NCBI GenBank assembly: GCA_044892525.1 | Contig: CM097885.1 | Coordinates: 73,656,222-73,720,000 of the forward strand | DNA from: Schmidtea polychroa | Lineage: Eukaryota | Length of the DNA stretch: 63,779 nt | Reading direction: 5' to 3' | Part shown: piece after piece, positions 10,534-63,779 of the stretch | Position numbering within the stretch: the first letter of the stretch is position 1 | How the letters are laid out: every line of letters starts with the position of its first letter | Position numbers and translations under genes: made by a program | The notes under the pieces: generated by a model | What the model saw: only the letters and a program-made list of their open reading frames with translations | What the model was told of the DNA's origin: nothing | Databases searched by the model: none

Positions 10534-10985
10534 TAATTCAGTTGTTTTTTAGCTTCAAATTGTTAATATTTATAAATTAAAGATTTTTGACCAAATTTAT
10601 TAATTATATTTGTGAATTTTATTTCGAAGAAACAATGTATCAGAAATCAATAAATTTGATTCGCTCAAATTAAGAGTAACATTTACGGTTCTGAGAGCTT
10701 CATCACCACCAGGGTTTGGATAGTCACCATTATTGTCTGCATCATTGATATTAATATTTTCAATTGTTTCACTGTCGTTAATCAATTATCTTGACATTTC
10801 ATTACTTCCTCTAGCCCAATTCAATATTTCCTCGTCATTCATTCAACTACATGTGGCTAAAAGCCTAGCAATGGAATTTCGGCTTCTTCTTAAAAGCGAT
10901 TCTGTGGAAAATTAAAAATTATTTCATCAATTGAGCAGAATAGATGTTTAAAAATAGAATTGACAGTTTGAATATTTACTTGGAA

Positions 10986-12030
10986 TATCAAGTAATAGCC
11001 ACGCATCGCATGTGGAAGAAAGACAGAATCGTCAATAATATACTAAAAACACCAGTGCCATTCTCCTCAGAAGACACTACATTATATATGGCATAGTAGA
11101 AAAACTATGGGAAGAGGTGATCAAATTGTAAATGATGGCATTCCAGAAAAATCATAATAGCGAAGACATGGGACATTAACTAAGTACGATTGACGAAGGA
11201 GTTGAATGGAGTTGAAGTTCAAAAAGAACATTCGAGGACAAACTGGTGGATAGTTATGATAATATATTTTTTTTGAGAGAAGTGAAAGGAGTCCAGCCAG
11301 CAATAACAACAGTCAAGGTGGAACCTAAAGCAATGAGAATTTTCAATAGTGAGTATTAGAAGCTGCTAAAACATCTTCTAAATTATTTTTTTAAATCCGG
11401 TTCAAAAGTCAACGACATAATTCCAAGTATTTATTTAATGAAATAATGTATAATTTCCAAACAAATTTTTCGCGTTGAATAAAATATTTTCAAAACTATT
11501 TATCAAAATATTTCAATATTTAAAACATATTTATTTAAAAATTTTTCATTAATAAAACTTCTTTTTTAAAAAGCTATTTTAATTTTTAATTAAAAATTTC
11601 AACTTAAAAAATCCAATTTAAAAATTATTTAAAAGTTATTTTAATAGTCAATTATTTACAATTCAAAATTATTTTGATAAAACATTGAAATATTTGACTC
11701 TCAGCTGAAAACACCTCACAGTGAGAAATGTGATTTGGACTCAGATGAAGAATATTTCTCCATATATGAGGAAGAGATGCAGGAGGAGTTCAACAAAGCT
11801 ATGCAAATTGAGGATGGCCTAGGACCAGAATTAGATATCGTGCTAGAGGAGTCGAACTTCGTTCTTGAGAGGAACAAGAGTGTAGCCTCAGAGAAGGATA
11901 TATAATGAGGACATTACCTTGACGGCCCAGGGGGAATGTTGGATGACTGAGAAAGGGCAATTGAAAATTTTGATTTAACAGAGTATGGGCAAACACATAT
12001 CACGTAAATATATATGCTGAAAAGAGGTGA
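10986..12030 (+). pseudogene. Decayed relic of the 3' accessory cassette of an element related to the 50344+ LTR retrotransposon
   Basis: Translates to YQVIATHRMWKKDRIVNNILKTPVPFSSEDTTL, IVEKLWEEVIK, RTFEDKLVDSYDNIFF, CDLDSDEEYFS, AMQIEDGLGPE, NEDITLTAQGGMLDD and VNIYAEKR*, matching ORFs 51909-53222 and 51343-51912 in the same order. Interrupted by an AT-rich stretch at ~11340-11700 and by stops. Confidence 0.9.
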
Positions 12031-27900: not shown

Positions 27901-28834
27901 TGCGTGTTTATTTGACAATTTACTAGTTCCTTTCTACACGAATTAATTGCGATGATTTTTCCAATATCTGAGTTTATGCTTTCTTGATCCATAACGTGAA
28001 TACTCGGTTTATTTGATCTACTTGATGATCTACATACTCCAGCAAAATGATTTAGTTTCCCACATTTGGTGCAATTTTTCCCAAAAGCAGGAAATACTTA
28101 CATTTCTCTCTTGGAATAAATTCTTTTGTGAATAAAATGTATTCATATTTTGCTCATCTTCATTTACTTTCTCGAAGTTTGCAGTGAATATCTTAAACTG
28201 TTCCATGTCTTGTATGATCTCTTGAATATGATCCACCGATAATTCGACGTGTCCTATTTTTTCAAGAAGGTATAATTTCGTTTTGTCGTCATAAAGACCG
28301 GCTATAACTGGCATTCTTATCATATCTTCTACTGAATCTTTTGATTCTTTTAGTTTCTCGAACTCACAGAATTGTGCGCCTTTCCGAATTCATACAATGA
28401 AATCTGAAATATTTTCGGATTTTTCATGTTTTATCTTGAAATATCTGCTTCTTTCTGCTACAACCAACCCTGATTTCGGATGTAAGTATTTCCGTATTGC
28501 TGATTCGATTTCTTCATATCTGCTCGTTTGAATGGTTCTTGGGGATAGAATGGATCGGATTTTGTTGTTCCTCGAAACCACATAAAGCCATGAAGTTGTC
28601 TGTAATTGATAATTTTGTTTCGGAATCAGTCCATTGGTTTATCCTAATTATCGCATTGAATGTGACTAGCCACGTTTCGCAATGGTCTGCATTTGTGAGA
28701 TCCATAGATGGTAATCCTGCTCGTGACGTCATTGAAGTGAATTGAATAATACGTTTTAATTCAAAAATCTATTCTTTTAAAACATCTGTTTATTTAAACA
28801 ATTTTAATAATATTAATTTCTTAATATTATTTCA
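24981..28834 (-). mobile_element. Degenerate Ty3/Gypsy LTR retrotransposon (Mag-like) with very short LTRs
   Basis: LTRs 24981-25097 and 28733-28834 (TG..CA, near-identical apart from a ~15-bp indel); flanks ggaag / gaaag (4/5). PBS 28714-28731; PPT agaggagga next to the left LTR. Broken gag (WL..F), protease DTGAD, RT SPVVWVKKENGDLRMCVDF, RNase H TDASLNAIGAVL..EREALA, integrase VDSGSGWIEA. Confidence 0.92.
28714..28731 (-). promoter_or_regulatory. Primer-binding site of the Mag-like element (tRNA-Ser-like)
   Basis: TGaCGTCACGAGCAGGAT, 1 nt after the LTR; resembles TGGCGTCACGAACAGGAT, complementary to the tRNA-Ser(CGA) 3' end. Confidence 0.6.
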
Positions 28835-43490: not shown

Positions 43491-46400
43491 TCAACTCCTG
43501 GAATGCAAATCATTGATTAGAGATAATAACGGAAACCAACCAATCAAACCCTTACCGAACTCGTATTTACTATAAATGCCTTTGAAGAACTGCTCAAGGG
43601 TGATCGCGAGATTCATGATATCACTGTCTGGCATATTGTAAACCTCAGCATTGAAGAACATTTGCCCGACATCGGAAAGAAAAGTTTTGAGAGAATCAAT
43701 ACCGGACGCATAGATTCCCTGTTTGTATTTGTCCATCATTTGAGCGAGATTAATCGGATCGGTAATAATCTGATAATAATCCGGAACCTAGACAGATCAA
43801 TAGATGATAGGTATAGATGTAATACAAGTTGTCCCCAATTACCTCTTCTGGATCGACGGGATCAATGAATGGCCAGGAGGCCTTGTGATTGATCATATTT
43901 TTCAGCATATGATAGCAAGCTTTCTCGATCTTTTCCGCTGACATTCCATTGCTGGATTTCTTTGGGGCTGGAGCCTTATTGTTGACATCTTCACCGTCAC
44001 CGCTACCGTTACAGTCCTGTTGTTCCTGCTTAACGTTTCCTGTACTGGCGATTGAACTGCGTTTCCGATTGGTGGAACGCTTAGTGCTTGTTAAATATGA
44101 CTCGATTTTATCCACTGATTTTATTCCGTTGCAGGATTTTTTCGGTGCTGGAGCTTTATCATTGTCACCATCTCCACCGTTACAGTATTGTTCCTCGGGA
44201 TTCTTCACGTTTCCTGTACTACTGGTGGTGAGTGAACTTCGCTTCCGATTGGTGGTACGTTTAGTAAACAGATATGGCAAATTATCGACATCTTGATCAG
44301 ACTCGTCGGAATCGGAATTATTGATCGGATCCAATTTTATTGATTCAACTGCCGGTTTTGATTCCTCCACAGTTTGATTGGTTTTCGCAATTCTCGATTT
44401 CTTTCGCAATGGAGGTTTCACTGATGACTTCTGAGATTCCCCTTCGCTGCACTCTCCAACGTCCTCTTCGTCGTCCTTTTCAATTTCACTGAACGGTTTC
44501 TTTTTCACTAACCCGTACTTGGTGTTGTTGCGTTTTTTAGTTCTGTTACGTTTTCTGCTGTGGTTTTTGTCGGGATCTTCATTGCTCGAGGAGTTCTGAT
44601 CGTCTTCGTTACCATCGGAATTGTTATTGACATCGGCAGCACCGACAGTTGAAATCGAACGTCTCGATAGTTTGCTATTGGTTTTGGTAGCCTCATCCAA
44701 TCGGCATTGACAACAGTGCCAATTGGTTCGTCTGATTTGTCTGAGAGGGGGCTCATGGCAATGAGCGTGGAATAATTTATTGCACGAGGTACATTTAGCT
44801 AATTGCTGTTCACCGTTGGAACTGTGGCACACAAAGCACTGTTCATGATGTGAGGTTTGTTGTCGGGTTTTGGATTTGATTGACTGGGTCACTGACTGGG
44901 CGGATGGGGCAACTGTCATAGCAACGGTGTCTGAGTCAGCATCGCGGGCCCTGGAAACGGGCTTGCAATGGGGACAGAACCACTCGCCATCTGGGACATC
45001 GTGTAAGGCCGGTCGCAGGCAAAACGTGTGAAATGCGTGATTACAACTGTCACACAGGAGCATTGAGTTCTCATCTGACGCCTTTCTGCATACTCGACAT
45101 TTGTCGTCCTTTGCCGATTTGCTCCAGCACACGCAAGCATCCAGGAAGGATTGCAGCATATTCAGTCTGGCTTGTGTTTGTGCCTGTTCAACTGCGTTAA
45201 GGAATTCGTTGCGCCCATTGGCTGATTTCAAGGGCACGTTCCAGAACCGCTCATGAACACCGAGGAATACCGACACGAGGGTTTCTTTCATTTCGTTGAG
45301 GGAAACCGCTAAATTGACCCGTTTCTGCCACTCGACATAATCCTCAACACCACCGAGGCTACCCTGTCTGATTGATATTTCTGTTTCCTTCAGTTCCCGC
45401 TTGAATCCCGCCACGAGAAATGACTGCTCATTGGAATCGGCTCCTATCGATGAGTTTGATCGAGTTGCCGGTTCAGTGATTGCTTTGGAAACCGACTGGA
45501 ATTCATCGGCCAATTTAGGCAGTAATGCCTCGAGTTCTGATTTCAATAGGCTCTCCCGGATGCCCTTATCTGAGAGGCAATTGAGCAATTGCTTGAGCTC
45601 ATCGTGAGTTGTGAACATGTTCCATTCGGTGAGCACGTGATCAGTAGGCACCGTACTGCTGCCGACATTCCCAGTACCGGTGTTGACTTGCTGCTCCATT
45701 TCGACATAAATGGCGCCCGGTGCTGAAAGAAAGTGCCAATATCGCCGGAAATGTCGATCGGAACCGAGTGGTTGTATTCGCATCAATTGCTTAGCTTCAT
45801 TCATTGCTGTAAAGTAAGATTTCTGAGATTGTTCCAATAGCTTCTTGTACTGGGTTTCGTCTTTCTCAAGCTTCTGATATTGTCGCTCTTTCTCTAACCT
45901 GCGCTCCCGTTCTTCGGACTCTTTGAGCTTCATTTCTATCGATTGACGCCTTCTGACAACTTGACTCGTGTCGTCAGTCGCTAAGGAGTCGGTTACATCC
46001 CCAGCCGTCGATTTGAGGGTGACATCATCAGTGCCAAACTTGCCCACGATCAATTTGCACATATCCTGCTTGCTTTGTCTGAGGGCCTTCAATTTGTCAT
46101 TGAATTCCTTTGTATCGGCAATCCGTTTCTTATACGCCTCGCACACATCCCGCTGGTAGTCATCAATGAATGAGCTGACAATGTCCAACTCGAGGATTCT
46201 ATTCTGCAACAGCTCCAATACACCGATTTTATCCTCAATGCTCAACTGCTGCAATTCGACAGTTTGTAGTTTCTCGCAAATAGGGCCAGCTATCCGCTTG
46301 TTATGGTTACAGTTCCAGATTTCTGTCGATGTCTGAATAGTAGCGGCAATCAATACCTGTTATTTATGTCCCAAACCCATTCAATCCTACCTCTTCATCA

Positions 46401-48823
46401 CCTGCATCTCCGTGCTGTTCCTTTATCTCATCGTTAGCATCCTCATTGCCATCATTGTCGATGGCTGGACGAGTTTCTCGCTTATCAATCCCGAGTAACA
46501 GAACGAGCCGCAATAACTCACCGGCAGTGCACACAGTGACTGGCAACTCGGTCAATGCCAATCCCATTTCTTTGCGACTCTAGAAATAACAAATGAAAAC
46601 TAAAAATATTAAAATCATCTCCCAAACCCTGATCCGACTGTCCTGTAGCAACGGTTTCAGGAGGACACACACGAATTCCGCCAGCATTTCATGGGAGTTG
46701 TCACAATCGTTGATAACCGACTGACAGAGATCACGAGCAGTCAGCACTTTGCTATCATCTGACGCTTCACCGGACGGCATGAGCAGCCGTTTATAGCAGC
46801 GCACGAATTCACACACCGATACCAATCGTGCCCATTGATCCTGGCTCATGCCACCTTCAACAGAGATCGGAGTTCCTTCTGGGACTTGTTCCGCATATTC
46901 CAATTCATTATCTTCTAATTTTGTGTTTTCTTCGCGTCTTTTTTCCCGTAACTGGCGTCGCATTTGATTGCGCCTCTCATTGAGATAGGCCTCTCTTTGA
47001 TCGGCAGTCATGGCGTCCCTGAATAATGCTCAATGTTAGCTAGGATTCAAAAGCACTGATTGATTGTCTACAGCTCCGCCAAATCACAGAAATACCCTAC
47101 CCCCTCCTCCCATCCTATAACAATTCATTCCTACCGCGTATAATCAAGATATATTGGAATATAGTCAGATACCCCCCCTAACTATACAAGAGTTAATACT
47201 ATTAAAATCAATAACATATCCCCCCCCACATTGAAACAAAATCTACAGATACGCCCTCACACAAAACCAATAACCAATCAAATCACTTACAGTCGTTTTT
47301 TCTCCTCGTATTTCTCTTTCCTGTCAGCAATCGGTACCCTAATCAGATCCGGGAACTTGGCAATCTGTTGATTACTGAACAGCTGACCACATTTGAATAT
47401 CAATTGCTTGACGTTTGGATCCGCTGGATTGTCCTTCATTAATTTCAACAATCGTTGAGCCAATGGCGGCAACGAACGCGTTGGACTGGACAGTGGCGAC
47501 CTTATTGCATTACTCGAGCTGGAATTGCGTTGACTAGCATTGCTTTGTGTTGTAGTTGACATCGGAACATCAAACAGTGTTGTTTGTTTTAACTTTTTAT
47601 TTTTAACGAATTTCTCTTTTGATTCATTTATCTGTGATTTTCGCTTGATCAATAAATTGTTCTCCTCATCGTCACTCCGAGTCAAATCGACCGTCGTGTC
47701 TTTGTATTCATCTTTCATTTTATTAAACATTTGGATTTCTGTCGCCTTTGATAACTCTTTCATCTGAATTCACAGAGGAAATTTATATTTTTGTCAAAAA
47801 TTATCTTCCCCACCTTTTGTTTGTCAACAGCGAATTCTGGTTCCAAATTCGGTAATCGATATTTCTTGACAAGTTCTTCGTCAACTACCCATGGATTATT
47901 CTGTTTACCAGAGTGTCTGATTGCGTGGGCACGAATGAACATTCGGATCTGATCTTTCGAAGGAGGCCTCAAGGTTCGCCTGAATATTTATTTTGTCAAA
48001 GAATATTCATAATCCAAATCAATTATTACTCAATAGTTTCTGATGGAATATCTTTCACTAATTTTTCCATTTCAAAAATTTTAACACTGTAAAAATAGTT
48101 CTTCTATACCCGAATAAGATTATATTTGAAAATATGGAAATTGCAAATTACTTTGACAGGAATAATTTTCTTTTTCATATTTTCTTTATCACTACTTGAG
48201 GCATCAGAATTAAGTTTAATTGGAGAATTCTATTTTACAAATTTATTTATAAGTTTTATTATTAATAAATATACTTCTTGATCTTCATTTGATCGAGATC
48301 TATCAACTTTGACTACTACACCTTTAAGACTATAAAAATAAGCCTTAAATATATATATAAAAAGAATGAAATCCTACATCATTTCTTTTGGTGCCGTTAG
48401 CTTAATTGTCACCGGTTCATTTACACAATACTCTTGATGAATTTGAGTCCATGCTTTATGTATAAGTGTATCTAAACTTTCCTTACCTGTATTAATAAGA
48501 TAAATACACGATAAATAAATATATATCAATTTACTGTGATGAACAAATTGTAAAACTGCAGCTTCAAAACATTTCTTAAAGGAGTTTTTTAACATTTTTG
48601 AACAACCTTGTTCGGATTTTAAAGCTTCTTTAAAAGTTAAATTAATTTGTCCAGTAATTCTACAAGTCCATATTTTCTGATTGTATAAAAACGTTTTTCT
48701 ATTAAATTCCTCATCATTTTCACATATTTCGTTAGTAAGGGAATGGCAAATTGTAGCATCCTCGTCCTTTTTGTCTTTTCTAATCTTATTTAAAATGTAG
48801 AGCTTATTGGATAATAATGGCAT
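43491..48823 (-). CDS. BAZ1B: BAZ1-family chromatin remodelling subunit, closest to WSTF (WAC-DDT-WHIM-PHD-PHD-bromodomain)
   Basis: MPLL..KIWTCRITG..LTFKEA..VLQFVHH (WAC); IRMFIRAHA..PWVVDEELVKKY; DDT LVSVCEFVRCY; LGSDRHFRRYW; two PHD fingers; bromodomain SWPFIDPVDPEE / VPDYYQIITDPINL..FFNAEVYN. The motifs match WSTF better than ACF1/BAZ1A. Confidence 0.85.
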
Positions 48824-49894: not shown

Positions 49895-50343
49895 TGTTGA
49901 GGTCTCAGTATTTGAGATTCTCAAGGTTGCACTGGCTACTATATGGGTCTATCGAAATATAAAAACGAAGTCGAATATTTATTGAAATATAAAATATTAC
50001 CAATACAAATTTTCCAAATAAAATGATTCCACTGAAAAATGATGCGTGTTATGTAGGTGTTGTATGTTGTATATGCGTGTTGTGTATGATTGCAGAAGTT
50101 TAGAACGTTTCTGTATATGGATACAGAAACGTTCTAAACTTCTGCAATCATACACAACACGCATATACAATATACAACATACAACTAATAAGGATCTACC
50201 CTTTTTAGTTTGCTAAGAACGGTAAAAATTTTTGGGCGGCCACTACTGATTTTGGGTCACTATTTATATTAATTTTTCTGCGCGCTGGTGTATGGAAAAC
50301 ATATGTTATTATTAAAAATATTATGTTTTATTTGCTTTTTAAA
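49895..50343 (-). mobile_element. Older, diverged LTR fragment of the same family, interrupted by the young element
   Basis: Starts tgttgaggtctc like the young LTR and shares gaacgtttctgt, actaataagga..cctttttagt, ggt.aaa.tttt.gggcg and ctatttatatt blocks in the same order. Confidence 0.8.
50067..50170. repeat. Perfect 50-bp inverted repeat with a 4-nt loop
   Basis: 50067-50116 is the exact reverse complement of 50121-50170; loop atgg; arms extend ~9 nt further with one mismatch. Confidence 0.95.
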
Positions 50344-51446
50344 TGTTGAGGTCTCGATATTCGGGAACACTCAACTTACTGGTTCTTATATATGTACAAA
50401 TATATCAAAAGACAAAGTGATTTATAAAACTTTTATTATAAAGAAAAATTTACCAATATGAATTTGTTGCTAGATTACAAAAATCCAAAAATCCTTCAAA
50501 TATCCAACCGAATATGCTTGTATGTACTGTGTGAATGTTATGTATTCTCTTGCTGTGTTGCGTGTAGGCTTTTGAACGTTTCTGTTTGTCTGTTCGAGTT
50601 TTAGCACTAATAAGGATTAACCTTTTTAGTATGTTAACGCGGTTAAAATTTTGGGGCGAAGAAAATGAATTTTACCTCGCTATTTATATTATTTTTGTAT
50701 ATGAAATTAAATTGATATATTTTTTAAGTATACTTATATTTTAAAGTATTAATTAAAAATTAATCAAAGTGTTGATTATAGAAATTATATATGTTTTAAT
50801 TTTAATTATTAAAATGTCTAAGCATATGTTTTATAATTTTATTTATTTTGTTCAAGTGTTAATTATAGAAATATCTTTAATTTTAATTATTAAAATATCT
50901 AAGCTTATGTTTTATAATTTTATTTATTTTGTTCAAGTGTTAATTATAGAAATATCTAAGCATATGTTTTGTAATATTCTAAGATTAATTATTTTGAAAT
51001 ATCCACTTATATTCTAATGTTAATTACTTATATTCTTATTATTCTAGAAACATATGTTTTATGATTTTCAATATTATTTATTTTGTAATTCTAACTGATA
51101 TTAATTAAGATTATTTAATTAGTCCCCATAATATGTTTTATTTACATGAAATAAATAAGATACAATAATAATTGTCATAATAATAATCCACACACAATAA
51201 TAATAATCCATTCCACAACACAATAATAATTGTCAAAATAATAATTCAAAAATAAATAAGATATACAATAATAATTGTCCAAATCATGAATCAATGTGCA
51301 TAGTTAATAATCAAATGATAATCGTCATTGTTTTGACTTTGGTTATCTGGGTTCTACGTAGATGTTGACCCTGAACTTGTTGCTGCCCGTTCTGTAGTAG
51401 TGTGTTAGTTCAAATTCCTCAATTCTTCTTCCTCTATCATCCAACA
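50344..51446 (-). repeat. 3' LTR (predicted 1103 bp, TGTTG...CAACA)
   Basis: Identical to 62699-63779 through 51424. Inner boundary inferred at 51446 from inverted termini and the adjacent purine run. TATA box tataaata at 50681-50688; AATAAA near 50430 on the minus strand. Confidence 0.8.
50769..50975. repeat. Tandem ~81-87-bp repeats in LTR U3 (also present in the 5' LTR at 63124-63330)
   Basis: Units beginning gtgtt(g/a)attatagaaat at 50769, 50856 and 50937. Confidence 0.8.
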
Positions 51447-51912
51447 CTCCTCCTAGGGCCGATAAAGTAATGTCCTCATTACCTTTATCGCTGAGGACCA
51501 ATTCAATTTCGCAACCGTTTATATACATTGTTGCCCTTTGGAATCCTTTCTTTAACGCTAATTTTAACACATCACCATCAATGATTCGTCTACCGAAGTG
51601 TTGATGTATTTCTTTTTCCGAGATAGTGGATCTTCCATCTTTGATGATGAACATTGGCTCCTCCAACTCGACATTTGGCTCTGGTCCTAGTTCGTCATCT
51701 ATCTGCATTGCTTCGCTCGGTGAGAAATATTCTTCATCTGAGTCTAAATCACATTGTGGGTCAGCATAGTTGTAACTAATTGATGTCTGAGGTTCTTCCT
51801 TTATTTTGATTGCTTGTGGTTTTTTGTCCTCTTTGACGAATATGATGTCATCATCGCTGTCCATTAGTTCATCTTCAAAGGTACGTCTGCTCCCATCTTT
51901 ATTGAATTTCAA
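51343..51912 (-). CDS. Accessory ORF5: acidic protein of unknown function overlapping the PPT and U3
   Basis: 189 codons from TTG; frame open upstream to 51999; first ATG internal (MDSDDD); homologous relic at 11220-12030. Confidence 0.7.
   Translation of the reverse strand: MKFNKDGSRRTFEDELMDSDDDIIFVKEDKKPQAIKIKEEPQTSISYNYADPQCDLDSDEEYFSPSEAMQIDDELGPEPNVELEEPMFIIKDGRSTISEKEIHQHFGRRIIDGDVLKLALKKGFQRATMYINGCEIELVLSDKGNEDITLSALGGVLDDRGRRIEEFELTHYYRTGSNKFRVNIYVEPR
51447..51454 (-). promoter_or_regulatory. Putative polypurine tract
   Basis: AGGAGGAG directly before TGTTGG on the minus strand; the relic copy has AGGGGGAA-TGTTGG at the homologous position (11929-11942). Confidence 0.65.
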
Positions 51913-53222
51913 TTCTCTTTGTGAGGGTTCGATATATATATCTTCCTCAAATTCCTCTGGCTCATCCTGTTTTCTTCTATTGGACTGAGTTGATGGCCAT
52001 TATTTTCCTTTTGGAATGCTGTCATGTCCCACCTTATGACTTCTTCCCATTGCTTTTCGACCAAGAGGTAAATGACTTTTGCGATTAGTGTTGTATCTTC
52101 TGCTGAGAACGGTTCGGGTTTTTTGAGGATGTTGTTGATTGCTTTGTCTTTCTTCCATTTTGGGTGTGTTGCGATTACTTTGTATGCGAGATTCGATAGT
52201 TTGATTCTGTGTGGTGCTACATTTTTGACGAATGAACACATGAACACATCTTCAGCTAATTCTCTGACTCCCATGACATTGTACAGATCTAATGTCAGCG
52301 TCTTGAGTTTCTTTATTATTTCGTATCCCACAATGATTTTTCCGAGTAGCAGCTTCTGTATGTCGATCAGCGCTTGGTATTCGTCTTCATTTCCTCTTAT
52401 TGAATCCCTGTCTGCTCTTGTCTTCTCCGGGTAATAATGTTGGATTTTGGTGCGTGGAGTCACCTTTTTATTGTATACGATTTCTCCTCTAAAATTTCTG
52501 ATGCATATCTCTACTGGTCTGAGATTGTTATTGATGTCGCATACTTCTTTGACATCGACGAACATGATTGCCCTTTGTCGTTCGGGGATTGACAACTGTT
52601 GATGTGTGAATGACATCCGTTTCGAGATGAAATCTTGATGTATTACGATTTCCGACTGTATTATCTCTAATTCCCTGAAAGGATTGGGTATGGTTGGGAC
52701 ATATAGAATTTCGATAGCCATCACACAGGGTAAATTGTTCATTTGGATGACCAAATTGTTGAAATCGTTTGGCATGCTTCGATTCGTCTTCATCGTCTTG
52801 ATCACCACCGTGCAGTTGCTTGTTGTTATAATAGGGATTCGTTGTTGGCAAATTGAAACCTCCGTTCTGGTCATATGGAATAGTATTCTATGTGGGACTT
52901 TTCTTCCTTCATTTGCTGCGATATCTGCATTTTCGAACATATCATAGGTGCCTATTATATCTCTCAGCTTTATCCTTCGGGCTTCATTAAATTTAACTAA
53001 GTGCATTTCTCTTTCTTCGATTTCGCACTTCATTTCATTGGGTATGCAGACCTGGTTAGGGATACTTCTGATGGTGATTGGTGAGCCGTCTGAGGTGATT
53101 TTATTTTGCAAATTTTTGTAGAAACTGTGGTATAGTTTTTGAATGGAGCAGCTGTATTGTTGGACTGGACGTTGTATGGGATTGAATGGTTTGGGATTGA
53201 CTCTGGTATTGTTGGATTGCAT
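51909..53222 (-). CDS. Accessory ORF4: unknown N-terminal domain plus REX4/ISG20-like DEDDh exonuclease fold, probably inactive
   Basis: Likely start MQSNN (ATG 53222, preceded by tttttttag). FVDVKEV..VEICIRNFRGEIVYNKKVTP..IQHY..IQKLLLGKIIVGYEIIKKL..FSAEDTTL..IYLLVEKQWE aligns by eye with REX4/ISG20. Confidence 0.75.
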   Translation of the reverse strand: MQSNNTRVNPKPFNPIQRPVQQYSCSIQKLYHSFYKNLQNKITSDGSPITIRSIPNQVCIPNEMKCEIEEREMHLVKFNEARRIKLRDIIGTYDMFENADIAANEGRKVPHRILFHMTRTEVSICQQRIPIITTSNCTVVIKTMKTNRSMPNDFNNLVIQMNNLPCVMAIEILYVPTIPNPFRELEIIQSEIVIHQDFISKRMSFTHQQLSIPERQRAIMFVDVKEVCDINNNLRPVEICIRNFRGEIVYNKKVTPRTKIQHYYPEKTRADRDSIRGNEDEYQALIDIQKLLLGKIIVGYEIIKKLKTLTLDLYNVMGVRELAEDVFMCSFVKNVAPHRIKLSNLAYKVIATHPKWKKDKAINNILKKPEPFSAEDTTLIAKVIYLLVEKQWEEVIRWDMTAFQKENNGHQLSPIEENRMSQRNLRKIYISNPHKEN

Positions 53223-53367
53223 CTTTCTAAAAAAACAATATAAACATACATATTTACAGCGCATTTGAGGCTTTACCTTATACGCTTCAATATAAATAAA
53301 AATATAAATATATGTGAGTTTAAATATTATCATTGACCAATAGGAATTGAAATTATCTATATTATTT

Positions 53368-54192
53368 TTAAACCAATGAGGACATTGTGTATTGTCCTGG
53401 CCTATACTTATCCAAATGAAAATGCCCTGGTACATTTTTGACCAGTCGGTGCCGATACCGCTGCCTTTTCCATTTGTATTTTTTATACACTTGAACACTG
53501 GTGATAATAGCTAAAATACTCAATGCTAAAATGCTTGATGAAATTACATAGAAAGGCCATCGTGGTTTAGCAGGTTTTACTTGAAATGCTCTTAGTTCAT
53601 CCCAGTTATTTATGATTATGGGTTTTCCCGTAGGTAATTTTATCAGTTTCCTATCAAACTGTCTTAGATTTTTTATTATTAATTTTTTATATACTTGTCT
53701 AGTTACTTTAAATGTCGTTTCTCTGTCTGTGTTTGTTATCGTTTGTAATGACTGTTGGGTGGATGCCGAATTTGTGGTAGTTATTGTTATGGTGGTTGTT
53801 GGCATGCTATTATCTATGGGCTTATATATGTTTGTGATAGTGGTTCTTATTCTTTTGCACCTTACTTGTGATGTGTCAACTAAGGTGTTCCATTGTGCAC
53901 AAAGTGTGTAATTAGTGTTAGGCTGTAGATTTATGAATTCAACATTGTCTCCTCTTTCAAATTCATTAGTTGATCTATTCTCAATTTTTTTCATAAGCTT
54001 GGGTATATCGTCCCCAGTTTCTAGATATAAGTCTCTTATGGGTGATTTATTCAAGTTATATACTTTAATTTTATACGGTGAAATGTTGATTAAAATATCT
54101 TCCTCCATGTATTTTACTGAGTGTATGCTCTCATTTTCTACTTCAGTTGATTTACATAGCCCTATAATTGTTAAAAAGATCGATCGCTGCCA
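53368..54192 (-). CDS. Accessory ORF3: type-I membrane protein (FN3-like domain, Thr-rich stalk, TM, basic tail)
   Basis: NLQPNTNYTLC (FN3 LxPxTxY), PTTTITITTTNSAST, TM WPFYVISSSILALSILAIITSVQVY, then KKYKWKRQR. ATG at 54108, but the frame is open to 54192 with signal-like RSIFLTIIGLCKS. Confidence 0.7.
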   Translation of the reverse strand, partial: WQRSIFLTIIGLCKSTEVENESIHSVKYMEEDILINISPYKIKVYNLNKSPIRDLYLETGDDIPKLMKKIENRSTNEFERGDNVEFINLQPNTNYTLCAQWNTLVDTSQVRCKRIRTTITNIYKPIDNSMPTTTITITTTNSASTQQSLQTITNTDRETTFKVTRQVYKKLIIKNLRQFDRKLIKLPTGKPIIINNWDELRAFQVKPAKPRWPFYVISSSILALSILAIITSVQVYKKYKWKRQRYRHRLVKNVPGHFHLDKYRPGQYTMSSLV

Positions 54193-57100
54193 TCATCAGT
54201 GCTTTTTGTGATCGTAATCCATATTTGTGAGGTGGTTTTTCTATTAACTCTGTTTCTGATAGTTTGCATCTATTAACATGTACTATTATCGGATCCTCAT
54301 TTTTATGTTTTTGTAAATGCAGGTTTTCATGTACTACTTTTACTACTTCGTATGGTCCTTTAAATGGTCTTGCTAATTTAGTTGTTTTGCCTTTACCTAC
54401 CTGTGGAGACATAAGTCTAACCTTATCTCCCACTTTAAAATTATGAGGTTTGCTATTTTTATCATAATCTGCTTTATATTGTTCTTGTCTGAATTTAACT
54501 TTTAAATTTGCAACCTTATATACCTCTTGTAATCTCTCTTGCATTAATGTTACATTATCTGGCGCATCTAAATATTGTGATACTCGAGGCTCAAAAATTG
54601 TATCAATCGGTGTCGCAGGCTCTCTTAAGAACATTAGAAAATATGGTGAATATCCCGTTGTCTCATTTGGTGTGATATTATGGATGTATGTGCATTGATT
54701 AACGTATTCATCCCAATCATTTTGGTTTTTTCCCACAAACACAGCTAATCTACTTAGCAATGTCCCATTGAATCTCTCTACTAAACCATCGGTCTGAGGG
54801 TGGTATGCTGTTGTGTTGATTTTATGCATGTTAAATATGTTAGCTACTCTTTTTATAGTTTCACTCATGAAATTTTTCCCTTTATCTGTTAATAATTTTC
54901 TCGGTGTACCGATTTTAAAGATTATTTTTTCCACAAGTAATTTAGCTACTGTTTCTGCTGTTTCATCTTTTGTAGGAAATGCCTCTGCCCATTTTGTAAA
55001 ATAATCGCTAAAAACTAGTATGTGCTTATTCCCATTAATTGTTGTGGGTAGTTTACACAAAAAATCCATTGCGCACAGTTCCATTGGTGATGTTGTAGCT
55101 GGGATTGGATGTAAAGGTGCTTTAGTTTTTGTTCCTGTATTTTTTCTAGTTGCGCATATTGTGCATGCATTACACCATCTCTTGACATCCTTTTTCAAAT
55201 CGTCCCAATAATATTTTTGCATCAATCTGCTTGCTGTTTTCCTACTTGATAAATGACCTCCTAGAGCACCATCGTGATATTGTAATAGAAGAATTTGTCT
55301 TAATCTTTGTGGTACTACTATTAATTGTTTACCGCTAAAATCCTCAATAACAATTAACTTCTTACAGATTTTATACTTTTGGTTAGTTCCCTTTTTTATT
55401 TCTTCTCTTATCTTGAAGAGTTCTGGATCTTTCATTTGTTCCTCATATATTTCTATTGGTTTTTCAGTTACTAATGCAAAAACTTCTAGTGCTCCTAACT
55501 CTGGAATTCGTGATAATGCATCTGCATTCCTGTTTATTCTACCTGGTTTGTATGCAATCTTTATGTGCATGTCTTGTATTTTCATTGCCCATTTTAACAG
55601 TCTACTGGATGTATCTTTATGTTTCCATAACCCTTCTAATGGCTTATGGTCTGTTCTAATTACTACTTCAGTTCCATATATGTATGGTTTAAATTGTTTT
55701 AATGCAAAAACTATAGCATAACATTCTTTCTCAATTGTTTAGTACCTAATCTGTGCTCCTTTTAATGTTTTGCTTGCATAAGCTATTACATAATCTTTAC
55801 CCTTTTCCTCTTCTTGTCCTAAGACTGCCCCTACGGCCTTCCCACTGGCGTCTGTCATGACAATGAACTGTTTTTTAAAGTCTGGGTATCTTAGTATCGG
55901 TGCTGTTATTAATTTTTCTTTTAGTTGATCAACAGCTTTTTGGTGTTCATCTTTCCATTTCTTTTGTGGCTTGTTAATTTTATCGTTAATCTCTTGTACT
56001 ATTAACACTCCTTTACTCTCTCCCTTTGTTTTGACTCCTTTTGTTAACTCAATTAGTGGTGCTGCTATATTTGCATAATCTTGTATGAATTTACGATAAT
56101 ATCCTGTGAGACCTAAAAATCCCTGTACTTGTTGTAATGTTTTTGGAACTGGGAATTTTTTAACTACTTCAATTTTATCGGGATTAGGTATTATACCATC
56201 TACTGTAACTATATGTCCTAAGAATAATGCTGAAGGTTCTGCCCATTTACACTTAGTGGGTTTTATTTTGATTTTTGCTTTTCTTAATCTTTCTAGTACG
56301 TTAGCTATATCTTTTAGATGTTCCTCAAATGTTTTTGATGAAATTAATATATCATCCATATATACTGCGCAATGTTGTACGTCTACTAATACTGTATTCA
56401 TTAAACGTTGAAATGTTGCTGGCGCATTAGTTAACCCAAAAGGTAATCTTGTATATTCATATAAACCGTCTTCTATCACAAAAGCTGTCTTTTCCGCATC
56501 CCCTTCTTCCATTTGAATTTGCATGTAGCCTTTATTTGCATCTATTACTGTGAAATATTTAGTATCACTAAGTTTATCATATTGTTCTTGTGCTTTTGGG
56601 AATGGGTATGAGTCTTTTACTGTTACATCATTTAATTTACGATAATCAATGCACATTCGAATTTCCCCGTCTTTCTTTCTAACTGGTACGATAGGTGATG
56701 CCCATTGTGAAAAACTTTGTTTTATTACGCCTGCCTCTTTTAATTCTTTAATTTGTCGTTTTATTTCCTCCCTCAGTTTATATGGTACACTATAGGGTCT
56801 CTGTTTTATTGGTCTAGCATTCCCTGTATCGATTACATGTTTGATAATGTCAGTATCTCCTAAATCAAATTCGTGTTTTGCAAAAACATCACTGTATTCG
56901 TCAAGTAATATTTGTAGTTGTAGTTGTTGTGTTTCATTTAGATAATTATTATTTATTTTAATTTTATCATAAAATTTGATATTATTCGCTCTACTCTGTT
57001 CGACCATTCTTTCACTGACATCCTTCGTCATCGACATCTCACATACTTCAAATGTTTGTTCTAATTCACCTTTGAACAACTTTCCCAATTTTGTACCTTT

Positions 57101-60100
57101 ATGAATTTTTACTTTATTTCTTTCGTAATTCGCGATTCTTATTGGAATTATCCCATTATTTGGAATTACACACTCGTCTGTTAACATTACATTATGATTT
57201 CGTGATATTGCCGTTTCAGGCTCAAAAATGAAAGTGTCCTCACTTTTAACATTAACTTTTACTGGAATTATATGATCACTTTGATACTCTAGTTCAAATG
57301 TCTCTAATGCAATTACCTCAGTAAATCTTGCGTCTTGATATATTGCCTTCCGTTTGACTGTACTATCCGTTAAATCGATTACACAGTTTTTTAACTTTTT
57401 GAGTATGTCCATCCCAAGGACACATACGCATTTACATTCTGCTACTACCTTGAAGACATGTTCAACCACTTGATCCGAAAAGTGGACTGTTAATTCGATA
57501 TCTCCTTTTAATGGTATGTAATGTGATGATAATGAAATTACTCTATCTCTTGTGCTCACGATATTTTTCTTTTGGTTTCCGGTTAACTGATCTTCACGAA
57601 TCATAGAAGCTGCTGCTCCTGTGTCACATAATGCCTTTATTATCGTATCATTTATCACTATTTGTAATTTAGGCCTTGCTTCATTTAACCCTTCTAATAT
57701 ATCGTCAAGTTCTAACCCGTAACATCCATAAGTTTTCCTTGGAACACAATGACAATTACCATTTTCACCTGGGATTCTAATTTCAATATTATTTCTTAAT
57801 TCTGTCAATTGTTCTCTTTGATTATCATATAACCCAATATGTGGTTGATCAATATTTTCTGATTTGTTTGCCTCGTCATCTTTCTCGTTGGTGATCATTA
57901 TTTCACCCTCTTCCCTTCGACTTTTCATCCGTTTGATTTCCTTATCGTGCCTCGCAGTGATCAAATATTTGGCTATAAATGGACATAAACATGCTATCAT
58001 TTTATATGAATTACCAAAAACTTGTCTCAGTTGTCTTAACGAAACTAATGATGAGCAAATCATTTTCAATAGTGCTAATGTATAATATATACCCAATATA
58101 GTGGAAAACGTATTTCCGAGAATCGCAAAATATCCCCATATGCTGTATAATACTCTATACACAACTTTCTTGAAGTGCTCTTTTGATAATAATACGTCAA
58201 AGTTGTAATTTCCTCCATAACTATTTTCGATGATTTTGTTTACCATGATAGAAAGAACTTTTTCTTTTTCATGAGGAAATAACATATGTTTTCTGGCGCT
58301 CTCTATCGCCTCTCTCGTATACATCCCATTGTTATCCATTTCGTTGACTTCCTGAAATTCTAACTTTTTCTCAAGTTCAGTTAGTTCTAGTTTTTGTGGT
58401 TTAGTCGCTTCTTTTCTATCTGACATTGTAATCCACATATCATCATTTATTTTGTATAATGGATCTAATAGATTAGTACATTTATCAATTTTTCTCGGAA
58501 CATAGTCTTTATCTGTTAATATCCTTGTTATTGGTTGGAGGTATACAGTTTCTCCTTTATACACTACTGGCAATTCGTTTGTGCACTTATTATTCGTTGC
58601 TAACGATACGCTAACCGGTTTACACTGAAATGTTTGTATTACTTCACCGACAACTCTTGCAAATGTCCCTTTTTCTGCAAATAAAATTGGTGCCATTAAA
58701 TCTGGGTTTGTGACTGCAACCGCCATCTTTGTCCTTAATATTTCTCTATTAAGTTTACAATCGTTTGCGATAGTTGCTTGGTACACCTTGTCCAATTGTA
58801 CTAACTGATGATGATAGAAATAGTCAATTTTATTATTAAAATATGATGCTAGCTTGACGTCGAATTTATCTATTCTCGATTTTGCCTCTTTAATTTCACT
58901 TCCGCTGATATAAATTCCCTCATAATTTGTTTGTACGACTGCCTTGCCGCATTTTATACTTTCACCTTTTCCCACAAATCTCATCGCTTCTGTCTCAGAA
59001 TCTGACATGTATATTGTTGGGGTATCTCTCTCTTGAATTATCGTAGCTCGTCGCTTTTGATCTTTGATGTTCTTGGATTCTACATCCGTAAACTGTTTAC
59101 CTCGTATCGTTCTGAATTTCAGTGTCTTTAGTTTAGTTAGATGGCATTCGTATTTATTCACTCTGTATATGATCATTGACTCGCCTGTATCACAGCTTGT
59201 CTCATCTAATGTGCAGAACTTATGTGTCATCATTTTCTTTGATGCACTATCAAATGACGCTTTGAATTTCCTTAATTCAATGTAATACTGCCGTCTCACT
59301 ACAATATTGTCTGCCACATGCCCCCATATTTTATACCTTCCTCCTTCACAATATCCTCCTGTTGATGACCATCCCACGACATTTACTAATTGTCTTACTC
59401 GTGCTCCTACTTGAGCATCTAACTCAAATCCATCCGGCGTTTTTATCTTTTTTGTTTTAAATGCATTTTCGCATTCAACTGGCGTTATTATTATTGCTTC
59501 TGGTGCCCATGTTGGAGTTAATATTGTTCTCGCTATTTTATTACATACAAAACTTTCCTCTGAATATTTAACGATACATTCTCCTGCCTCAGTGTGAATG
59601 AAATCAGATTCCTGATATATATGGAAAATCTTGGGATCTGCTACAATTAATTTTGTTGGATTAGCCTCTGGGCAATTTTCTACATCTAGCAATGAATATT
59701 TTTGTCCCCACTTGGGATTCTGACAATCATACGCTATGATCGCATTATTCCCTTTTATCAGATCTAATAACAATGTTATTACTATAATTACTATTGACAT
59801 TGTCGACTTTCTTTCTTTTTGACTTGGTTTCATAGTTGTTTTATTTACTAGATTTTTTACTGTTTCCTCCGTATCATCTATTTCTACGTTAATATTATCT
59901 TCTACGCTTTTTTGAGCACTTTCGATTAGACTCTCATCATACAGTATTTTCCATCCTCCCTTTAATTTTATCCATGGCATAGCATCTATCTTTAGTTTAT
60001 TATATATCATTTTAGCGATATTTTCTATTTGATTCTTTGGATTCAATCGCAAAAGTTTCTTGTATCTTGCTATTAAATATGCCATTGCCGTAATCACTTT

Positions 60101-60334
60101 ATCTCGATTAACTCCTGTTGTAAATAATATCTTTAACACTGTCTCTTCATTTGCTTCCTCTGCACTCAATTCTCTAATCTCTTTTTCCATTAATTTAATC
60201 TTTTTAACTATATTTTCTATTAACGCTGATGGTTTTGCTTCCGGAAATCGTCTCATATTCATTGCTTTAACTAACTCTGTTATCATTTTTATATCCTTGT
60301 CATTATCCTGATTTTTTGGGACTTCCTGTCTCAT
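54152..60334 (-). CDS. env-pol: Env-Pol polyprotein: helical leader, signal peptide, chuvirus-like fusion protein, TM, protease, RT, RNase H, integrase (one in-frame TAA at 55739-55741)
   Basis: Signal peptide 59800-59750; AYDC 59734-59723; TM ~58140-58050; protease LCDTGA ~57626; RT SQWASPIVPVRKKDG..RMCIDYR, LPFGL, YMDD 56362-56351; RNase H TDASG..YASKTL..Y*TIEKEC..TDHKPL; integrase HHCC, MDF/TDKG/ERFN, GPY motif. Confidence 0.93.
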
Positions 60335-60374
60335 ATTATTTGCAATATCTCTTAAACGCTCTGCTGCCTTTCTG

Positions 60375-62453
60375 TCATCTGACTTTTCGAGGCCTTCCTC
60401 TACTTCGTCTCATCGTCTCTGCGTCCTGCATATTTGCTTGTTTCGCAATTTTTTCTATTGTCTCATGTAAATTATCATATTTAGTCTCAATAGGTTTAAA
60501 GATTTCATCGCTAACTGTTGGTGACCTCATTGCTCCTCCTGAAGAAGCATCCCATAATCTAAATAATTTGTCATAGTCATTTTCGTCGTTTATACCCAAT
60601 TCTACTGATGGAATTGATGCATCCATTTCATTATTTTCTTGCCTTTCTATTACGGCAGTAATAATATTATTATCGATAACGTTTACCCCGTAGTCGATTA
60701 TATATTCGTTATTCATCATTTCTACACCGTTAAAATACAGTTTTACTTTATCATTATCTCCCAATTTCTCGGGCCAATTAGCTCTGGCCATCTGTTTCAC
60801 TTTATTCACTTTTGTGCAAACATGTACCCCTGTACTACGCATAAGTATTCTTGAAAGGTCTTTTGCCTCAATAGTTATATTCAATGACTCATGTAATTTC
60901 TGATTTTTTCTCACAAACTCACCATAACATTTTATCATTTCTTTCAATTCTATTTCTAGTTCAAATACTCTTGTCATATTTTGTCTCTTTACCATTATTG
61001 GTATCAAATTTCTCAAATATTCTAAGTCAATTCCTTCGACTTGAACTCTATTTATTATACGCAATGTCTCATTATCATCATAAGGCCATTTCTCTAATGT
61101 CTCTTTCAATTCCTCTTTTAATTCTTTACATCTATTTGCTTCTGCAAGAAATATCTCATCCGCTTCTCTTGCTTCACGAAACTCATCATTATCTATATCT
61201 ACATCATTAGTAAAACACTGAAACTCATTTAATGACATTTCTAACTTTCTCTCAATAAGTCTCCCATATTGAGTTTTAAATTCTTTTAATTCCTCTCTCA
61301 AACTGTTTATTTCATCATTAGCTGATATCAACTCAGCACTATTAATCTGTTTTATCTCAGGCTCATTTTTAAATCTCACTCTATTAGGCGATTCGCTTCG
61401 CGCATTATTACATACTTTAGCTAAGTGACCATATTTTTGGCAATTATAACATTTGATTTGTCCATTAAAATTTACTTTATCTCTACCATCATTATTATAA
61501 GGGCTTCCTCCCCTTTCTCTATATGAATTCTGTCTATATGGACTTGTCTGTCTACGTCTCAAATCATTTGTATTATCTCCATTATCATATCTATTACTTC
61601 TATCATATTTATTATTTCTCAAATTATTTCTACTAAAATCGACTCGATTATCTCTCGTATAATTAGTTCTATTGTATTCATATCGATTATCTCTATCAAA
61701 AGTGTTTCTATTGTTTCTATTCTCAAAGTTTCTGTTTCTCGCATTATCAAACCTCCTCCTGTTTTCAGGCGATTGACTTCTATCAGGACTCGGGCTTACC
61801 CTTCGTCTATTTTTTACAAAGTTTAAATATAGTTGTTTCATCTCCTCCCAGGGGATGTTGTCATCTGACTTACCCAACTCAGATTTTACCTCTATGGGTT
61901 TTTGGATTTCCATTGCATCTACATGTGAACTAAATCTATCTCGTTGTATTGCTTCTATACGCTTAGCTTTATGAACTAATTCATTTAAATTACCATATTC
62001 TACCATAATTAGCGCTTTATATAAATATTTTTGTATACCATTCCAAAACTGATCCTCAATTAATTTTGCTGTGTGCTCACCTGCACCAAATGCCTTTTTC
62101 GCTAACTCCGTAATTGTATATACATATTCACCAACTGATTCTCTAGTACCTTGATATCTGTTTCTAAATTTTTGAACATTTATCTTTTGTAAATCGCTAT
62201 CGATTACTATTTCTGCCCTCAGATATCTTACGAGTTGATCAAAATTATTTCCTTTACACTCTAAGTTATTGTATGCCTGTAACGCATAACCTTTTAAATA
62301 TAATGGGATTCTCATTTTTAACTCATCAGGTGTCCAACCACAAGCTTCTGCATACTGAGCGATCTCAGTGAAAAAATCGTCGAACTTTTCAGGCTCTCCT
62401 CTATATGGTTCTACTGGTAAAATTTTTATGTAATTATTATTATTATTATTCAT
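60375..62453 (-). CDS. gag: Gag (capsid, R/N/D/S-rich region, CCHC zinc knuckle, coiled coil, ubiquitin-like domain), 692 aa
   Basis: LKMRIPLYLKGYALQAY..RYQGTRESVGEY (retrotransposon capsid); CYNCQKYGHLAKVC; long C-terminal extension. Confidence 0.92.
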   Translation of the reverse strand: MNNNNNNYIKILPVEPYRGEPEKFDDFFTEIAQYAEACGWTPDELKMRIPLYLKGYALQAYNNLECKGNNFDQLVRYLRAEIVIDSDLQKINVQKFRNRYQGTRESVGEYVYTITELAKKAFGAGEHTAKLIEDQFWNGIQKYLYKALIMVEYGNLNELVHKAKRIEAIQRDRFSSHVDAMEIQKPIEVKSELGKSDDNIPWEEMKQLYLNFVKNRRRVSPSPDRSQSPENRRRFDNARNRNFENRNNRNTFDRDNRYEYNRTNYTRDNRVDFSRNNLRNNKYDRSNRYDNGDNTNDLRRRQTSPYRQNSYRERGGSPYNNDGRDKVNFNGQIKCYNCQKYGHLAKVCNNARSESPNRVRFKNEPEIKQINSAELISANDEINSLREELKEFKTQYGRLIERKLEMSLNEFQCFTNDVDIDNDEFREAREADEIFLAEANRCKELKEELKETLEKWPYDDNETLRIINRVQVEGIDLEYLRNLIPIMVKRQNMTRVFELEIELKEMIKCYGEFVRKNQKLHESLNITIEAKDLSRILMRSTGVHVCTKVNKVKQMARANWPEKLGDNDKVKLYFNGVEMMNNEYIIDYGVNVIDNNIITAVIERQENNEMDASIPSVELGINDENDYDKLFRLWDASSGGAMRSPTVSDEIFKPIETKYDNLHETIEKIAKQANMQDAETMRRSRGRPRKVR

Positions 62454-62678
62454 CCTATAGACTATTCTATTTCTGAGATTATAAACTATTTCGGATTGAT
62501 TATCTATTTTATCTTTTTTTTGAATTATTTAATAATTTTCAAAACTGAATTTATTTATTTAAAAATTGGTCAATGATATTGTTTTTTTATAAATATATTT
62601 TCCCAATATAAAATACTATACCCTCTGATCTCAATTCCTATCCCCCCAAATTGTGAATAACAATAATTGATTTTAAAG

Positions 62679-62696
62679 TCCCGGTTCGCGGCACCA
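62679..62696 (-). promoter_or_regulatory. Primer-binding site (tRNA-Phe- or tRNA-His-like)
   Basis: TGGTGCCGCGAACCGGGA, 2 nt inside the 5' LTR end CA. Confidence 0.85.
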
Positions 62697-62698
62697 AA

Positions 62699-63779
62699 TG
62701 TTGAGGTCTCGATATTCGGGAACACTCAACTTACTGGTTCTTATATATGTACAAATATATCAAAAGACAAAGTGATTTATAAAACTTTTATTATAAAGAA
62801 AAATTTACCAATATGAATTTGTTGCTAGATTACAAAAATCCAAAAATCCTTCAAATATCCAACCGAATATGCTTGTATGTACTGTGTGAATGTTATGTAT
62901 TCTCTTGCTGTGTTGCGTGTAGGCTTTTGAACGTTTCTGTTTGTCTGTTCGAGTTTTAGCACTAATAAGGATTAACCTTTTTAGTATGTTAACGCGGTTA
63001 AAATTTTGGGGCGAAGAAAATGAATTTTACCTCGCTATTTATATTATTTTTGTATATGAAATTAAATTGATATATTTTTTAAGTATACTTATATTTTAAA
63101 GTATTAATTAAAAATTAATCAAAGTGTTGATTATAGAAATTATATATGTTTTAATTTTAATTATTAAAATGTCTAAGCATATGTTTTATAATTTTATTTA
63201 TTTTGTTCAAGTGTTAATTATAGAAATATCTTTAATTTTAATTATTAAAATATCTAAGCTTATGTTTTATAATTTTATTTATTTTGTTCAAGTGTTAATT
63301 ATAGAAATATCTAAGCATATGTTTTGTAATATTCTAAGATTAATTATTTTGAAATATCCACTTATATTCTAATGTTAATTACTTATATTCTTATTATTCT
63401 AGAAACATATGTTTTATGATTTTCAATATTATTTATTTTGTAATTCTAACTGATATTAATTAAGATTATTTAATTAGTCCCCATAATATGTTTTATTTAC
63501 ATGAAATAAATAAGATACAATAATAATTGTCATAATAATAATCCACACACAATAATAATAATCCATTCCACAACACAATAATAATTGTCAAAATAATAAT
63601 TCAAAAATAAATAAGATATACAATAATAATTGTCCAAATCATGAATCAATGTGCATAGTTAATAATCAAATGATAATCGTCATTGTTTTGACTTTGGTTA
63701 TCTGGGTTCTACGTAGATGTTGACCCTGAACTTGTTGCTGCCCGTTCTGTAGTAGTGTGTTAGTTCAAATTCCTCAATT
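62699..63779 (-). repeat. 5' LTR (truncated by the window; predicted to end near 63801)
   Basis: Matches 50344-51424 with no differences noticed. Confidence 0.95.

Follow-up and report, generated by a model that had tools for sequence, protein, structure and literature searches.

The accessory gene behind pol in a Ty3/gypsy retrotransposon of Schmidtea polychroa encodes a protein whose ISG20/REX4-type exonuclease domain has lost four of its five catalytic residues. This domain is very probably a pseudonuclease; it is maintained as a protein by purifying selection, is fused to a predicted cupin-like domain, and has sisters with intact motifs at the same position in other elements of the same genome. 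The cupin-plus-ISG20 accessory family to which it belongs is apparently widespread and undescribed. The window, that is the whole stretch of DNA analysed (63,779 nucleotides of contig CM097885.1, assembly GCA_044892525.1), contains an element of about 13.5 kb on the minus strand, which carries in order gag, a fusion glycoprotein, protease, reverse transcriptase (RT), RNase H, integrase, a transmembrane ORF and the accessory ORF:

50344..63779, minus strand: LTR retrotransposon of the Ty3/gypsy type, ordered gag-env-pol and flanked by a 4-base target-site duplication; the 5′ LTR extends 22 bases beyond the window
62699..63779, minus strand: 5′ LTR, TG...CA, 1103 bases including the part past the window, identical to the 3′ LTR
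62678..62696, minus strand: primer-binding-site-like TGG... stretch just inside the 5′ LTR, found by eye
60375..62453, minus strand: gag-like ORF with CCHC knuckle (Pfam scan)
55739..60334, minus strand: ORF with a weak Bcl-2-like match, Monjiviricetes-type fusion glycoprotein, protease and reverse transcriptase (Pfam scan)
54152..55738, minus strand: remaining RNase H and integrase (Pfam scan)
53368..54108, minus strand: ORF with a hydrophobic, likely transmembrane segment and a basic tail (from the sequence)
50344..51446, minus strand: 3′ LTR, 1103 bases

As in an errantivirus on both counts, TG...CA LTRs with a target-site duplication accompany the order gag, glycoprotein, protease, RT, RNase H, integrase. 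The insertion is recent, since the two LTRs are identical over 1103 bases and the 4-base duplication is preserved. The fusion glycoprotein corresponds to PF24664 (E 7e-90, Pfam). An in-frame stop closes the 55739..60334 ORF, so that pol is broken there in the window copy, and the transmembrane ORF is continuous with pol in other copies of the element. An envelope gene between gag and pol is the arrangement of the GAG-ENV-POL errantiviruses with gB-type envelope, an order reported in flatworms, nematodes and bryozoans (PMC13524379). The Bcl-2-like Pfam match (E 5.6e-5, below the cut-off) lies at 60150-59950 on the minus strand, just ahead of the fusion glycoprotein; a Bcl-2-like motif ahead of the glycoprotein is also reported for planarian Burro elements, which measure 30 kb against the 13.5 kb of the window element (PMC6431247). 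Outside the 3′ LTR, a 90-base stretch (50184-50276) resembles the LTR-internal segment 50606-50696 (76%) and is adjoined by a 140-base palindrome (50041-50196).

The accessory ORF, located 3′ of pol, comprises an N-terminal domain of about 180 amino acids, the exonuclease-fold domain and an acidic tail, and a relic of a related ORF is found elsewhere in the window:

52629..53162, minus strand: N-terminal domain, predicted cupin or double-stranded beta-helix (fold of a sister N-domain and hhalign)
52029..52628, minus strand: ISG20/REX4-type DEDDh pseudo-exonuclease domain (profile, hhalign, model)
51343..52028, minus strand: acidic linker and C-terminal tail of the accessory protein (in-frame copies)
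10980..11995, plus strand: decayed relic of a related accessory ORF, with the exonuclease-domain end at 10980-11200 and the tail at 11726-11995

The reading continues in frame from domain to tail in 21 of 25 young copies, where the domain end was found by exact motif; the window copy is frameshifted in the linker, and its tail ORF covers 51343-51864. The final ∼33 codons of the accessory ORF cross the polypurine tract into the U3 of the 3′ LTR (51343-51446).

A preliminary description of this DNA had read a REX4/ISG20-like domain here. The domain is present, its extent being refined to 52029-52628 as part of a longer ORF, and the motifs FVDVKE, GYEIIKKL, PFSAEDTT and VIYLLVEKQWEE lie where they had been placed on the minus strand. 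Pfam matched no family in the window accessory protein, although it matched 8 of the 16 alignment members, and the window sequence alone reached E 0.08-0.1 against ISG20L2 and ISG20. A domain profile built from seven subfamily representatives, among which 73 of 200 columns are invariant, retrieved ISG20L2 (E 1.3e-6) and ISG20 (E 6.6e-5) from the PDB as its sole two matches at E ≤ 1. The first matches of the Atlas look-up were RNase_T (0.92), and hhalign connected the window domain to the intact-motif sister domains described below (99.5%, E 3.9e-22). A word-index protein search among near lengths confirmed 0 of 2352 candidates with the window protein and 0 of 4689 with alignment A1. An AlphaFold model of 52029-53162 (mean pLDDT 68; 67-96 in blocks across the exonuclease domain) resembles ISG20 (1wlj) best, with Z 17.8 and rmsd 2.7 over 162 aligned residues and a Foldseek E of 1.1e-7, ahead of Pan2 and SDN1 (Z ∼14) and of RNase D (rank 45, Z 8.5). 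Judged by profile and model, the domain is of the ISG20/REX4-type DEDDh fold, with homology beyond chance, which agrees with the fold first assigned to it. It shares with ISG20, ISG20L2 and REX4 (RNase T family, PF00929) the same order of secondary structures and the C-terminal Y..E..W helix, but differs from them by the lost catalytic residues, by a basic insertion of ∼13 residues ahead of ExoIII, by being element-encoded and by forming a separate clade.

The catalytic positions were scored at 50 loci, namely the window and fetched copies of at least 45% identity with the duplicate of the window dropped, about 30 of the 50 being near-identical young copies. For ExoIII, the alignment was anchored on a conserved helix Tyr and Trp, which stand 13 and 8 residues behind the His and the Asp in intact sisters. 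Codon starts from this anchored alignment and the residues found at the 50 loci are:

52556 (D), minus strand: ExoI Asp position; D 45, E 3, M 1, gap 1
52550 (K), minus strand: ExoI Glu position; K 43, R 5, S 1, Q 1, E 0
52310 (K), minus strand: ExoII Asp position; K 50
52109 (F), minus strand: ExoIII His position; F 48, I 1, T 1
52094 (T), minus strand: ExoIII Asp position; T 46, A 2, I 2

The active site is thus dismantled, as had been proposed from the motifs: none of the 50 loci retains the ExoI Glu, the ExoII Asp, the ExoIII His or the ExoIII Asp, and the window lineage has K, K, F and T for E, D/E, H and D. Since the anchoring puts Phe at the His position and Thr at the catalytic Asp, four of the five residues are lost and not three. 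The earlier reading had implied that the Asp of 'FSAED' was the ExoIII Asp; this did not hold, as the Thr after 'ED' occupies that position, and the Asp itself precedes it by one residue and varies among the 50 loci (D 39, Q 5, H 5, Y 1). The Phe is, as reported there, common to the relic, which reads 'PFSSEDTT' within 10980-11200. It is very unlikely that the domain still cuts by means of other residues. The ExoI Asp kept at 45 of 50 loci, an invariant Glu two residues before the His position and other invariant acidic columns would be compatible with such a nuclease, but Lys or Arg occupies two metal-ligand positions, Phe has taken the place of the general-base His and Thr that of the ExoIII Asp, a single ExoII change is reported to abolish ISG20 activity (PMC5388505), and other dead lineages lose even the first Asp.

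A search of the host genome gave at least 150 matching copies (150 of 1111 candidates scored, all of which matched). Among these 150, the copies form subfamilies at ∼95-100, 75-79, 64-73 and 56% identity, and at least 38 of those listed are 95-100% identical to the window. We computed dN/dS with a Nei-Gojobori script between seven representatives (21 pairs). Silent sites are saturated in 16 of the 21 subfamily pairs, with replacement distances of 0.20-0.39, and the 5 measurable pairs give a dN/dS of 0.030-0.073, similar to the integrase control (0.027-0.045); the pairwise comparison shows no excess of replacements between subfamilies. These values, together with the saturation, indicate that the dead domain is maintained as a protein, and so uphold the earlier view of a retained dead nuclease in the form of purifying selection between subfamilies. 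That the ORF is a decaying passenger without function is accordingly extremely improbable. The window copy does carry a frameshift downstream of the domain and a stop within pol, and many genomic copies are broken; yet such breaks are private to single insertions, 73 of 200 columns are invariant, and the dN/dS values with saturated silent sites rule out neutral decay.

A genome search with PF00929 (10 matches among 43 candidates) revealed another group of elements, which share the gene order of the window element and ∼50% RT identity with it. These sister elements encode the same two-domain protein at the same position, with the motifs D-A-E, GHDLxxE and HSAxED, and their exonuclease domain matches ISG20L2 at E 4e-14. 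The catalytic set D-E-D/E-D-H is retained in these sisters and also in relatives from public data. Many such intact-motif elements are present in the genome (150 of 1259 candidate copies scored).

Beyond this genome, a profile search of 1.8 billion representatives yielded 1719 matches at E ≤ 0.001. Among the best 150, which were inspected, about 60 are members of the element-borne family and the others are cellular REX4/ISG20-like proteins. In a quick exonuclease tree with SH-aLRT support and no bootstrap (135 of 154 segments, the 19 partial rows being left out), the element-borne family is set apart from 63 cellular-type rows by a long branch of SH-aLRT 100. The host's own REX4-like gene (L081, C2:180790517-180791276) has two exons and intact DEDDh motifs. 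The window domain has no tblastn match to this locus at E ≤ 1, and the intact sisters are 25-28% identical to it. Weak or no similarity to the host gene and the separation from the cellular rows argue for an old capture. The word 'captured' in the preliminary description, if read as a recent host gene, is contradicted by the same observations, and a recent capture of host REX4 is ruled out by the missing L081 match at E ≤ 1 together with the SH-aLRT 100 separation.

Catalysis has been lost more than once in the family. In a two-domain tree of 56 rows from which the five catalytic columns were removed (quick, without bootstrap), the state changes between intact and dead four times, two of these changes being forced by well-supported branches, and the window lineage groups with the dead relative P0008 (support 98). 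Adding the metagenomic locus L097 raises the count to five changes, three of them forced. By these trees, catalytic loss occurred 2-5 times in the family, and the exact number is unsure because of long branches. A single origin of all dead forms, suggested by the exonuclease-only tree (26 rows, support 88, long branches), was not upheld by the two-domain trees. Some other dead lineages are without even the first (ExoI) Asp. Outside the active site, 18-19 of 19 dead relatives retain residues specific to the family, namely P-R behind the third strand, D83 and G-x-R. A dead relative, P0117, carries a C-terminal RING finger at residues 744-794, suggesting a ubiquitin-ligase adaptor.

A metagenome scan confirmed 8 of 61 pattern matches, whereas a scan with the dead relative P0054 confirmed 0 of 69 and viral contigs 0 of 18. 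The locus L097 encodes RNase H, integrase, protease and ankyrin repeats followed by two family members in tandem, a dead copy with S-T-R / Q / E...E and an intact copy with D-C-E / D / H...D, and L098 carries the same pair. These two loci are the sole context seen outside the host genome, the other confirmed metagenomic loci being too short to show an element. In this Ty3/gypsy-like element (L097:5539-8642, and also in L098), a second protease and ankyrin repeats lie behind the integrase, with a short direct repeat between the dead and the intact ORF and a third ORF downstream.

The N-terminal domain of the accessory protein is predicted to adopt a double-stranded beta-helix fold. The model of the N-domain of the sister L066 (pLDDT 88.8), which is homologous to that of the window (hhalign 96.8%, E 2.9e-10), finds its best matches among cupins and 2OG-oxygenase barrels, with Z 9.4 to both NMB1881 and OsALKBH1; a Z near 9 does not tell a cupin from a 2OG-Fe(II) oxygenase. 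In the alignment inspected by eye, only one His is widely kept and a metal-binding His/Asp/His set is not evident. The N-terminal domains of vaccinia C16, a protein with a role in immune evasion, are also matched by the L066 model (Z 8.2), tied with many unrelated cupins.

Compared with L037, the window element is 98-100% identical from protease through RT to integrase and 60-68% identical in the accessory ORF, and the LTRs cannot be aligned, while L031 is 79-92% identical to the window in pol, yet closer to it in the accessory ORF (66-74%). Different pol backbones have thus exchanged their 3′ ends. The exchanged cassette consists of the transmembrane ORF, the accessory ORF and the LTR (window 50344-54300 compared with L031 and L035-L038). 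Such a fast exchange fits a conflict with the host as well as RNA chaperoning. The dead domain might be a decoy against host defence, occupying the substrates or partners of small-RNA-trimming, antiviral or RNA-surveillance nucleases and so protecting the element indirectly, a role that we regard as unlikely without dismissing it. The exchange and rapid divergence of the cassette speak for it, as do the C16 domains among the cupin-like matches and the RING finger of P0117, which would be expected of a degradation adaptor. Yet selection between subfamilies is purifying, without the excess of replacements, and the C16 match is shared with the many unrelated cupins. Close mimicry of the host REX4-like protein is itself unlikely, as the domain is far from the L081 protein.

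The reading we favour, at a little less than an even chance, is that the dead domain serves as an adaptor that binds the RNA of the element itself without cutting it, by analogy with other catalysis-free nucleases. According to this scenario, an ancestor of these elements would, in the distant past, have acquired a REX4/ISG20-type nuclease that became fused to a cupin-like domain, and several lineages would then have dropped catalysis and kept binding. In the window lineage, Lys at two of the metal-binding acid positions would hold RNA phosphates without metal, and the bound protein would shield or chaperone the element RNA at 3′ ends or stem-loops, or during export or packaging. The inactive ISG20 mutant D94G retains the ability to bind an RNA stem-loop (PMC5388505), and the PML PXL pseudo-exonuclease binds RNA (PMC13659232). 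The latter, like Maelstrom and EXD1 (PMC5408684), exemplifies cellular DEDD pseudonucleases in which a catalysis-free exonuclease fold is kept for nucleic-acid binding; these are host genes of other DEDD subfamilies and do not travel with a retroelement. Our model also resembles a further pseudonuclease of this kind, Exuperantia (5l80), at Z 10.5. As a parallel among retrotransposons we propose the dead GTPase CERV acting for Cer1. CERV, from C. elegans, is a 3′ accessory protein with a pseudo-GTPase domain that is demonstrably made from a spliced mRNA and needed for genomic-RNA export (PMC10309623); the comparison with the window protein is meant as an analogy. The sister of Cer1 is a flatworm errantivirus of the gB type (PMC13524379). 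The net charge of the domain is +7 to +10, with 16 invariant K/R columns among the seven representatives. This basic character is, however, nothing peculiar, since intact sisters range from +2 to +10 and 19 public dead relatives have a mean charge of only +1.3 (range -11 to +10), so that charge does not support RNA binding as a family-wide trait.

The dead domain could also be a scaffold or partner subunit, holding the cupin-like domain or the tail, or regulating an intact paralogue in cis or in trans; we consider this rather improbable. The tandem of dead and intact copies behind pol in L097 fits a partner or regulator equally well as RNA binding, residues off the active site are conserved in 18-19 of 19 dead relatives, and the many intact-motif sister elements share the genome. 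The window element, on the other hand, has only the dead version and has been amplified alone, and a scaffold by itself leaves the ExoII Lys, invariant at all 50 loci, unexplained. Returning to a binding or counter-defence role, a broader picture is possible although it is more likely wrong than right: the family would have repeatedly split into an active nuclease and a dead partner, the dead form being a counter-defence or RNA-export factor exchanged as a 3′ cassette and, in some lineages, a membrane-tethered extension of pol.

How the accessory ORF is expressed involves two features upstream of its ATG:

53227..53236, minus strand: candidate splice acceptor formed by a T-rich AG, 4 nt ahead of the ATG (53222)
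53223..53510, minus strand: upstream continuation of the exonuclease frame without stops; it overlaps the end of the transmembrane ORF and includes a conserved in-frame ATG and an acceptor-like AG

The acceptor-like AG that had been noticed just before the ATG is therefore real as a sequence feature. A T-rich AG of the same phase lies upstream in 48 of 55 frames, the sisters have an AG shortly before the ATG with stops further up, and in the intact ORF of L097 an AG directly precedes the ATG. One X1 contig leaves the element at 53228, the candidate acceptor, and the contigs, from runs presumed to be RNA, contain no joint to a donor; contigs from such runs cover the accessory ORF, a coverage that does not show expression. 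Splicing is unproven, because the frame also stays open over ∼95 codons ahead of the AG, a stretch shared in part with the end of the transmembrane ORF. Over the 50 codons from the end of the upstream ORF to the AG, six of eight copies have an exonuclease frame free of stops, although their two other frames contain 3-5 and 7-10 stops, and length differences between intact subfamily copies in the stretch before the AG are multiples of three. In the subfamily L031-L034 the transmembrane ORF reads straight into the open stretch, and a conserved Phe-Arg codon pair would by itself yield a TTTAG of the same phase. Candidate routes are thus splicing, a start at an upstream ATG or frameshifting out of the transmembrane ORF, and 53223-53510 is, from its reading frames, a candidate programmed frameshift or overlapping-gene region. 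Both frames of this minus-strand region are stop-free in several subfamilies, making it dual-coding, and a G+C-rich segment of 28 bases within it is nearly invariant.

The closest published counterpart is ORF3 of the Juno and Vesta LTR retrotransposons and Terminons of bdelloid rotifers, which like the window family is a DEDD 3′-5′ exonuclease ORF behind a Ty3/gypsy-like pol, with the DEED motif variant also seen in many intact sisters here; it is RNase D-like (DEDDy), keeps its residues and replaces env (PMC5408684), and is cited as an example elsewhere (PMC6338049). The family described here is instead of the DEDDh ISG20/REX4 type, is fused to a cupin-like domain, stands alongside a fusion glycoprotein and includes long-lived dead lineages. 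A DEDDy assignment does not apply to it, as the sisters carry His (HSALED) and RNase D ranks so low in the structural comparison. The word 'nuclease' is absent from the main text of the gB-errantivirus paper (PMC13524379), and the available text of the Burro paper names DEDDy exonucleases for rotifer Terminons only (PMC6431247). We found no earlier cupin-ISG20 accessory protein, nor a dead form of it, in the openly accessible main texts searched.

Hardly any work exists on the accessory genes that accompany an envelope gene in invertebrate retrotransposons, and the exonuclease ORF3 in print has, in the accounts available, intact residues and no shown function. In vertebrates the ISG20 fold is that of an antiviral nuclease. 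Because related elements of one genome carry matched intact and dead versions at an equivalent place, and another element has both in tandem, what an element gains from an ISG20-like domain is directly testable, whether it trims RNA, protects or exports it, or interferes with host defence.

Several other features are found in the window, which contains no tRNA genes. Two ORFs of 180 and 328 amino acids without Pfam match lie at 2880-4583 on the plus strand, more distant RT/RNase H fragments at 26326-27992 on the minus strand, and an apparently intact pogo/Tigger-type transposase (CENP-B HTH, DDE_1) at 30432-31901 on the plus strand. A host BAZ1A/ACF1-like gene with WAC, DDT, WSD and PHD domains (43750-48823, minus strand) is located 1.5 kb from the insertion, and its 770-codon exon has a G+C content of 47%, above that of its surroundings.
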